Virus record (IMG/VR): IMGVR_UViG_3300025626_000006
Location: 1 to 64,000 of that record
Source: a virus
Direction: 5' to 3' (one strand)
DNA: 64,000 bases
Shown here one piece after another: positions 13,350 through 13,598 of the stretch. Position 1 is the first letter of the stretch. Each line of letters opens with the position of its first letter. A program made the position numbers and the translations under genes. The notes beneath the pieces were generated by a model that saw only the letters and a program-made list of their open reading frames with translations, was not told the DNA's origin and ran no database searches.

Positions 13350-13598
13350 TTATTGTTCTCTTTTGTTTCTTAGCCATTCTGCTCGAATAGCATCGTCCAT
13401 CTTTTTTCGTTTTCTAGCTGATGGTTTGATAAACTCTTTTCGGTCTTTTAGCTCATCTAAGATTTCAGATTCCTTCATCTGTCTCTTAAAAAACTTTAAT
13501 GCTGCTTCAATGTTTCCATTAACTACTTTAGCCGCTCTAAATCTACCTGGAATCATCATTTGTTCTTTTCGAACTTTTCTATTATTGTTTCGTTGCAT
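13350..13598 (-). CDS. rpsU: phage-encoded 30S ribosomal protein bS21
   Basis: V..GNIEAALKFFKR....EILDELKDRKEFIKPSARKR matches the bS21 core. Confidence 0.9.
   Translation of the reverse strand: MQRNNNRKVRKEQMMIPGRFRAAKVVNGNIEAALKFFKRQMKESEILDELKDRKEFIKPSARKRKKMDDAIRAEWLRNKREQ

Follow-up and report, generated by a model that had tools for sequence, protein, structure and literature searches.

Why would a phage whose host ribosomes most likely ignore Shine-Dalgarno (SD) sequences place such sequences in front of its virion genes, and encode a ribosomal protein in their midst? The question is raised by rpsU, a gene for ribosomal protein bS21, in the first 64 kb (the window, i.e., the whole stretch of DNA analysed) of the 111,909-bp IMG/VR record IMGVR_UViG_3300025626_000006 (34% G+C; CheckV completeness of the record, 63%). 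In Bacteroidia, bS21 together with bS18 and bS6 sequesters the anti-SD, and Tyr54 of bS21 stacks on A1534 (Jha et al. 2021, PMC7797042). According to McNutt et al. (2023, PMC9976891), exchange of this tyrosine alone (Y54A) in Flavobacterium johnsoniae raises SD-dependent translation 1.7-3 fold; with either Y54A or a deltaC variant, the gain of strong-SD reporters is 1.7 to >4 fold in vivo; in vitro it amounts to 3-5 fold, and Y54A has little effect on SD-less mRNAs. We describe a phage bS21 with an N-terminal extension and an arginine at the Tyr54 position, a bias of SD sequences toward virion genes and toward one position in their leaders, the conservation of these features among relatives, and the joint presence and joint loss of bS21 and SD-led late genes. 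We give an even chance to the explanation that this bS21 exchanges into 30S subunits, makes the 16S 3' tail available and favours the SD-led mRNAs of high-copy virion proteins.

An extended bS21 gene inside the head module

Nearly all genes of the record, and all of those in the window including rpsU, are on the minus strand. The features of rpsU that bear on the question are as follows.

13350..13598, minus strand: rpsU, phage bS21, 82 aa, flanked by the prohead protease gene on one side and the scaffold/capsid genes on the other
13545..13598, minus strand: basic N-terminal extension, codons 1-18 (MQRNNNRKVRKEQMMIPG), an 18-residue offset relative to F. johnsoniae bS21
13383..13385, minus strand: codon CGA, Arg72, at the position of F. 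johnsoniae Tyr54
13374..13376, minus strand: codon TGG in the translation, Trp75, three residues past the Tyr54 equivalent

An earlier note on this DNA had recognised a bS21 gene in the head cluster, with the signature tyrosine replaced (DAIR) and a basic N-terminal extension, and all three readings hold. The protein matches Pfam PF01165 over the two-helix core (E 2.9e-12, 46.5 bits; cut-off 27) and TIGR00030 (E 9.5e-13, 47.8 bits; cut-off 28.95). Its best solved relatives are the Bacteroidota chains 9i5v_9 and 7jil_z (F. johnsoniae), and the HMMER alignments to both are ungapped: FIKPS, residues 56-60 of the phage protein, falls on the KPS of the two chains, and KRKKMDDAIR of the phage falls on KRKKMQKAIY of 9i5v_9. 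Arg72 is thereby placed at the Tyr54 position, where the MAFFT alignment with phage relatives also puts it. A 3-residue gap that would align Trp75 or a tyrosine with Tyr54 was considered and rejected, as KRKKM..AI(Y/R) is ungapped in every comparison. The 15 cellular Bacteroidota bS21 that we took from genomes are 62-66 aa long, begin with ML(I/V)(I/V) without an extension, and have tyrosine at KPS+12 in 14 cases and histidine in one. Judged by the marks of a Bacteroidia-type sequestering bS21, an aromatic residue 54 and a length of 62-66 aa, the phage protein has Arg72 at the former and is 82 aa long.

The extension is conserved in relatives as a basic patch followed by hydrophobic-hydrophobic-P-G (M-I-P-G in this phage). 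In a bS21-anchored sample of 83 IMG/VR loci, forming 25 clusters at 75% identity, an aromatic residue at the Trp75 position (+3) is found in 8 of the 10 clusters with arginine at position 54 (Arg54; F. johnsoniae numbering) and is missing from the majority of Tyr54 forms; Tyr54 and the +3 aromatic occur together in a single lineage, L068. A further mark of the Bacteroidia type according to Jha et al. is a C-terminal part clearly less basic than that of other phyla. The net charge after KPS is +5 in this phage, +4 to +11 in the Arg54 clusters and +2 to +5 in the extended Tyr54 forms, net charge being a different measure of C-terminal basicity from the pI of Jha et al. The AlphaFold model of bS21 (pLDDT 80.6) is informative for secondary structure only, and in it Trp75 is predicted to lie in the same helix (residues 59-81) as Arg72; a Foldseek search of the PDB with the predicted isolated protein gave nothing below E 3.4. 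Neither a phage bS18 nor a phage bS6 was found in five related genomes.

The head module surrounding rpsU has the T4-like gene order TerL (large terminase), portal, protease, bS21, scaffold, major capsid protein (MCP), followed by PhoH. For each of its genes we give the duplex free energy (dG) or the profile match; dG is explained in the next section.

19655..21229, minus strand: TerL, phrog_5989 and phrog_2; no SD, dG -3.0
17704..19581, minus strand: portal, gp20-like, phrog_213; no SD, dG +0.2
15509..16153, minus strand: prohead core serine protease of the T4 gp21 type, PF03420 (E 4.9e-32) and phrog_207
12106..13197, minus strand: orthologue of immuto gp204, called scaffold-like for its position; in synteny with immuto and Mel-JY01
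10445..12079, minus strand: MCP, gp23-like, phrog_138 (E 1.4e-74)

The scaffold-like gene had no family match in the profile searches. The phage is a large marine T4-like myophage related to Flavobacterium phage vB_FspM_immuto (immuto), its closest cultured relative: the MCP genes are 75% identical over a 692-nt stretch, the TerL proteins are 59% identical, and 43 proteins are common to both in synteny. Immuto has the same head module without bS21. In Microcystis phage Mel-JY01, with a TerL 57% identical, bS21 occupies the same slot of the head module; it was the sole match when the phage bS21 was compared by tblastn with 50,697 phage records, so that cultured isolates with such a bS21 are nearly absent.

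SD-led virion genes in the window and in relatives

SD strength was scored as the dG of the duplex with ACCUCCUU within positions -20..-3 from the start codon, and an SD was called at dG <= -4.5. By this measure 18 of the 49 window genes (37%) are SD-led versus 11 of the 97 genes (11%) that lie outside the window (Fisher p 7e-4), a comparison of gene classes that the earlier note had named beforehand and that its proposed bias survives. Internal ATGs, which give the background, score as SD-led at 11-13%, and the genes outside the late module are at this background. In late genes, and in no others, G frequency and SD 4-mers alike have a sharp maximum at -12..-9; at the same positions in immuto, G is depleted and an SD 4-mer occurs in 0 of 80 structural genes. 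Complementarity to CCUCC, 5-10 nt spacing, enrichment and a positional peak, the sequence marks expected of a functional SD, are all present. The principal sites, for which the spacer to the start codon is 5-10 nt, are listed here.

13205..13210, minus strand: AAGGAG, scaffold, spacer 7, dG -7.9
12090..12095, minus strand: AGAGGA, MCP, dG -5.8
16147..16151, minus strand: GGGAG, protease, spacer 5, before the second ATG (16141), dG -6.8
16826..16831, minus strand: AAGGAG, head-module gene 16280-16819, dG -7.9
1682..1686, minus strand: GAGGT, collagen-like tail fibre gene 3-1676 (phrog_6320)
9601..9604, minus strand: GGAG, 1502-aa gene 5085-9593, conserved in relatives G001, L009 and L012
40186..40189, minus strand: GGAG, 3491-aa gene 29703-40178
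47854..47858, minus strand: GAGGA, tail-module gene 46497-47846, kept in G001 and absent in the immuto and G003 orthologues
48509..48513, minus strand: GAGGA, tail-module gene 47859-48500
56049..56053, minus strand: GAGGT, gene 53968-56043, beside baseplate wedge genes
59958..59961, minus strand: GGAG, gene 58895-59950

The SD motifs that had been pointed out before the scaffold, MCP, protease, fibre and baseplate or tail genes are each present (fibre genes, GAGGT, AAAGG and GGAG; tail genes, GAGGA and GAGGT), and the genes named as lacking one, clpP, HD, primase, portal, terminase and rpsU, indeed have none in the scored leaders. Within the window, SDs are likewise missing from the DUF6734, PhoH, cytidylyltransferase-like, SbcC-like and endonuclease genes, the HD gene being the HD phosphohydrolase. 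In the protease open reading frame (ORF), two in-frame ATGs are separated by 12 nt (16141-16153, minus strand) and an SD stands before the second only, as in relatives, and the longest-ORF annotation probably mis-starts this gene.

How unusual such a division is can be judged from other phages taken through the same pipeline. T4, which has no bS21, is SD-led at 44% of its genes overall and at 33-65% in each 20-kb bin; Pelagibacter phage HTVC008M, with a bS21, at 42% overall and 25-56% across bins. Seven Bacteroidota phages without bS21 (immuto, PTm1, phi38:1, FCL-2, crAss001, 11b and the complete metagenomic G011) have 2-15%, never above background, and G003, a related myophage with a short host-like bS21 of 64 aa, has 9%. 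The genomes with an extended bS21, namely this phage, the complete G001 (Arg54) and the complete G006 (Tyr54), have 33-58% in the structural bins and 0-15% elsewhere. The pattern indicates that these genomes are bipartite: the late genes resemble those of a phage of an SD-reading host, and the remainder those of a phage of an SD-blind host.

Among relatives the SDs are kept by position rather than by sequence. The MCP SD of bS21-positive relatives varies (AGAGGA, ACGGAG, TAGGAG, AAAGGAG), and the retention of its position while leaders diverge argues for selection in bS21-positive lineages; the immuto and G003 orthologues have A/C-rich leaders, and the immuto MCP is without an SD. By gene, the SD is found before 18/20 scaffold and 15/17 MCP genes, 3/19 portal genes and 0/18 TerL genes. 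In relatives with an extended bS21 the scaffold SD TTTAAGGAGAA is almost invariant, and the protease is usually SD-led, with TAGGAGAATAA at that site. Sorted by the bS21 that they accompany in the bS21-anchored sample, the neighbouring genes have the following pooled SD fractions.

N-extended Arg54 bS21, 10 clusters: 52%
N-extended Phe54 bS21, 2 clusters: 41%
N-extended Tyr54 bS21, 10 clusters: 36%
Short host-like bS21, 2 clusters: 12%, equal to background

The extended Arg54 and Tyr54 clusters differ in SD fraction with a Mann-Whitney U (MWU) p of 0.03. The bS21 gene itself is SD-less in all 23 extended clusters, and 44% of its neighbours are SD-led (P about 2e-6); an SD-less rpsU is what is expected of a protein needed before a switch takes effect. 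One locus, seemingly a short Arg54 bS21 without SD enrichment (L080), is a member of the same family in which both scaffold and MCP are SD-led, and is not a counter-example since its start is probably mis-called. We also note L014 (IMGVR_UViG_3300010883_006247), whose 113-aa bS21 with Arg54, no +3 aromatic and a C-terminal tail lies amid small genes whose SDs are very strong (AAGGAGA, TAGGAGA); none of these neighbours is homologous to a head gene of the present phage, so that the pairing of bS21 with SDs is not tied to the head-module context.

As a sample collected around bS21 may favour its carriers, 52 head modules of the family were anchored on the immuto MCP instead. The MCP is SD-led in 8/8 bS21-positive versus 0/44 bS21-negative modules, and SD-led genes make up 45-71% of a bS21-positive module versus a median of about 7% of a bS21-negative one (MWU 5e-6). 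Each of the 8 positive loci has an extended, Tyr54-type bS21. Loci that were SD-rich and seemingly without bS21 (L229, L232/233, L242) were rejected as exceptions, a divergent bS21 being found in them by hidden Markov model (HMM) searches, and the same searches confirm its absence in two complete genomes. In the MCP tree, 49 rows without bS21 group in a single clade (support 100) and L252 is the one bS21-less row outside it, so that two changes of bS21 state suffice, one in the immuto clade and one in L252, and both coincide with the loss of the MCP SD. The proposal of the earlier note that bS21 and SD usage are coupled thus stands in one part: the presence of bS21 tracks SD-led late genes, and the two were lost together twice. 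Its other part, loss of Tyr54 as the general cause, falls with the Tyr54 relatives, which have this bias as well.

The region just upstream of rpsU has three further elements.

13599..13619, minus strand: A/U-rich rpsU leader without SD (TTATTTTTTTATACCTTATAT), dG +3.7
13620..13644, minus strand: 10-bp hairpin followed by a U-run, terminator-like, directly upstream of the leader
13646..13654, minus strand: ATATTTATA, promoter-like motif, found by motif counting in the window

The hairpin stem is kept through compensatory changes in the relatives L009, L045, L046, L062, L072 and L068; it could terminate the protease operon, act as a 5' hairpin that stabilises the transcript, or attenuate rpsU. 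The motif ATATTTATA has 11 matches in the window versus 3.5 expected, 10 of them on the coding strand; for 9 of these 10 the distance to the start codon downstream is about 20-45 nt (for the copy at 63984-63992, about 108 nt).

9627-9635, 10363-10371, 13646-13654, 17684-17692, 19620-19628, minus strand: copies of ATATTTATA
23390-23398, 27373-27381, 40202-40210, 48523-48531, 63984-63992, minus strand: further copies of ATATTTATA

It precedes SD-led and SD-less genes alike, rpsU included. The T4 late promoter is TATAAATA, and in its letters ATATTTATA looks like a comparable late-promoter-like element. A promoter role for the G-rich motifs was considered and rejected: ATATTTATA sits 20-45 nt upstream, and the SD peak lies at -12..-9. 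Metatranscriptome assemblies from several studies contain the head region, with MCP and scaffold on long contigs (depth about 19-24), one of which, in one run, extends into rpsU to 13579, and with only short contigs of depth 2-6 for protease, portal and TerL; assembled contigs of this kind cannot rank genes, show transcript ends or exclude DNA carry-over, and we draw no conclusion from them.

Host, proposed mechanism and rival explanations

The host is most likely a member of the Bacteroidota, of Flavobacteriia type, as the earlier note had presumed; this assignment draws on indirect evidence from genome comparisons of four kinds. A phage protein beyond the window (109235-109972 of the genome, minus strand) has the C-terminal sorting domain of the type IX secretion system (T9SS; PF18962, above cut-off) together with a cohesin domain (PF00963), and immuto has a counterpart with a T9SS sorting domain, annotated in its record as a cohesin domain-containing protein; the sorting domain was not found in Mel-JY01 or G001. 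The kinship with immuto itself and the SD-less early genes are host-consistent traits. The nearest cellular bS21 are of the same phylum: in a search of 185,579 species genomes for the REFIKP-type pattern, 15/15 cellular bS21 belong to Flavobacteriales or Saprospiraceae. An extended phage-type bS21 with Arg54 and Trp57 was also seen on a 2.2-kb contig (NZ_CAXBFR010000197.1, L160) in a metagenome-assembled genome of an uncultured Flavobacterium; the contig probably comes from a phage that was binned along with its host, a weak host hint.

For such a host, we propose the following course of events. The host 30S subunit would hide its anti-SD in the bS21/bS18/bS6 pocket, and the SD-less, A/U-rich leaders of early genes, DNA-metabolism genes and rpsU would be read by these unmodified ribosomes. 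From its own late-type promoter motif, rpsU would yield a bS21 with the extension and a changed C-terminal helix (Arg72, Trp75). Since bS21 is a late-binding, loosely held ribosomal protein, we propose that the phage copy exchanges into host 30S subunits, where it would leave the 16S 3' tail free, or help or stabilise its pairing with mRNA. The ribosomes would then gain affinity for the SD-led scaffold, capsid, protease, fibre and tail mRNAs, and portal, terminase and enzyme genes would stay SD-less. The N-terminal extension would be the common determinant and Arg54 a possible enhancer. In its full form, the proposal is that the extended phage bS21 is a ribosome-specialisation factor, encoded by an SD-less gene, that turns SD-blind Bacteroidota ribosomes SD-reading at late onset and opens a private channel for virion mRNAs, the whole having been lost as a unit in the immuto clade; we put this a little below an even chance.

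Several points weigh against this proposal. Loss of Tyr54 is not the determinant, because the tyrosine is kept in 10 extended clusters, in G006 and in each of the 8 bS21-positive loci anchored on the MCP, and these lie in SD-rich modules; in the sequences compared, the feature common to all SD-associated phage bS21 is the N-terminal extension, not Tyr54 loss alone. In the Arg54 forms, the +3 aromatic could take over the stacking role through a shift of register, and such proteins may still stack on A1534. That the protein enters the ribosome, that the anti-SD is unmasked and that translation gains are steps that we infer, made plausible by the Y54A and deltaC results. Please note that the gene calls and starts come from a crude longest-ORF rule; the SD bias is unchanged when the best of the alternative starts is allowed. 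Other genes are distributed as bS21 is, namely those for ClpP, for a VWA protein and the MoxR-type AAA+ ATPase that goes with it, for PolB and a clamp loader, and for RecA and SbcC. As read from the alignments and the tree, bS21 and SDs are strongly linked, but the phylogenetic basis of the link is thin: it consists of two co-losses without statistical weight. An SD on the scaffold gene alone occurs in 9 of the 44 bS21-less relatives, with the MCP and nearly all other genes of these 9 loci SD-less, and may be a remnant or reflect the use of naturally bS21-free ribosomes. The loci concerned include L206, L208, L217, L235, L238 and L245, and the motif is AATTTAAGGAGAAA in 6 of the 9. Finally, Mel-JY01, the sole cultured bS21-positive relative, is recorded on Microcystis, a cyanobacterium; its bS21 has lysine at position 54 and no aromatic nearby, and its SD fraction is 54-62% in the head module and 6-25% in most other bins. 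Either the immuto/Mel-JY01 family spans two phyla or the recorded host of Mel-JY01 merits a second look.

Taken at face value, this record suits an explanation in which the host already reads SD sequences, SD strength simply tracks the expression need of virion genes, and the phage bS21 matches that of the host or serves otherwise. The MCP tree is also compatible with it, as the bS21-positive lineages stand apart from the bS21-less immuto clade and a difference in host could explain both traits. We nevertheless consider it unlikely: T4 and HTVC008M use SDs in every bin, and here SD use outside the late module is no higher than at internal ATGs, as in phages of SD-blind Bacteroidota; this phage and the Flavobacterium phage immuto have a T9SS-sorted protein in common; and the phage bS21 is nearest to Bacteroidota bS21, with many relatives keeping the Bacteroidia signature Tyr54. 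The association might instead be historical, bS21 and SD-led late genes being ancestral and both having decayed in one large subclade for unrelated reasons. With only two changes of bS21 state on the MCP tree, independent contrasts cannot reach significance, and scaffold-only SDs persist in 9 of the 44 bS21-less relatives. But SDs hold their position while the MCP leaders change (AGAGGA, ACGGAG, TAGGAG), which indicates selection; in bS21-less relatives SDs are below background and not merely absent; both bS21 losses coincide with loss of the MCP SD; and rpsU is consistently SD-less inside SD-rich modules. Of the explanations considered, this seems to us the least probable.

A further possibility is that ribosomes lose the host bS21 during infection, by shut-off or through ClpP, and that the phage bS21 supplies an essential N-terminal function or blocks re-binding of the host protein. 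The phage does have a ClpP-like protease gene.

62084..62725, minus strand: ClpP-like protease, no SD, 71% identical to G001 24536-25204 (PF00574, E 1.2e-27)

Of the genomes compared, the four with bS21 (this phage, G001, G006 and Mel-JY01) all encode a ClpP, and immuto and G011, which are complete and have no bS21, do not. F. johnsoniae ribosomes without bS21 are described as translating SD mRNAs better and the N-terminal part of bS21 as essential, and the authors speculate on a protease of bS21 phages that removes the host bS21 (PMC9976891). This explanation would also accommodate the phage bS21 that keep Tyr54 and accompany SD-led genes. It needs, however, two activities where one suffices, a substrate adaptor for bS21 on the phage ClpP is a pure assumption, and a bound Tyr54 phage bS21 should mask the anti-SD again unless the extension prevents it, in which case the explanation merges with the exchange of an extended bS21 that we prefer. 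We regard it as improbable, marginally more so than an SD-reading host.

Related systems and significance

F. johnsoniae bS21 belongs to the same protein family as the phage protein, the residues in question are in the same helix, and it is the functional model for the phage variant. The differences are the 18-residue N-terminal extension, the apparently more basic C-terminal part of the phage protein (net +5) and the regulatory target: F. johnsoniae has an autoregulatory loop on one SD-led gene, rpsU, whereas in the phage rpsU is SD-less and a class of virion genes is SD-led. The closest viral precedent is the set of bS21 in freshwater Bacteroidetes myoviruses, clades a-e, of Chen et al. (2022, ISME Commun 2:31, PMC9723584), proposed there to substitute into host ribosomes and favour late phage transcripts, and expressed late with head genes. 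As in those phages, whose predicted hosts are Bacteroidota, bS21 here stands among TerL, portal, prohead protease and MCP, and a Clp protease is encoded. Unlike them, rpsU here is on the same strand (minus) as the head genes that flank it, and position 54 is arginine in this phage and in 10 of the 23 extended clusters sampled; the residue was aromatic in 61/61 of the phage bS21 of Chen et al., who concluded that these block the anti-SD as the host protein does. The passages of that paper that deal with bS21 hold no analysis of SD motifs in phage genes.

Basic N-terminal extensions of huge-phage rpS21, predicted to favour phage mRNAs, were reported by Al-Shayeb et al. (2020, PMC7162821); in the parts of that paper concerned with S21, the protein is linked neither to SD usage, nor to gene class, nor to the Bacteroidia anti-SD pocket, and the SD analysis is on rpS1. 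In Francisella tularensis, exchange of bS21 paralogues alters mRNA selection, according to PMC9578407, a precedent for ribosome specialisation through bS21; but these are cellular, non-viral paralogues of a Gammaproteobacterium, with no SD-blind background. HTVC008M, a myophage of Pelagibacter, likewise encodes a bS21 (Mizuno et al. 2019, PMC6375957), and this protein can enter Escherichia coli ribosomes, as cited in PMC9976891; the host of HTVC008M, however, is SD-competent, SD use is uniform along the phage genome and no gene-class switch is visible. A literature search on phage bS21 found no paper tying phage SD usage to bS21, and the bS21-related passages retrieved are silent on it.

Among phage-encoded ribosomal proteins bS21 is the commonest, with Bacteroidota as the main predicted hosts. 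Phage-encoded bS21 in head modules is known already; the SD-led target class and the SD-less switch gene are what the present analysis adds, and the general idea that phage bS21 favours phage mRNAs thereby gains a specific, falsifiable target, namely SD-led late messages in an SD-ignoring host. F. johnsoniae offers the tools for it: strains for the depletion of rpsU and for allele replacement, GFP reporters with and without SD, in vitro translation and cryo-EM. A practical consequence concerns annotation, in that gene callers with one model of the ribosome-binding site will mis-start genes in bipartite genomes, the protease gene being an example. If the proposal is true, the extended bS21 would be a natural case of a virus that uses a single small protein to reprogramme which mRNAs the ribosome selects, and it would explain why some phages of SD-blind bacteria carry SD sites.

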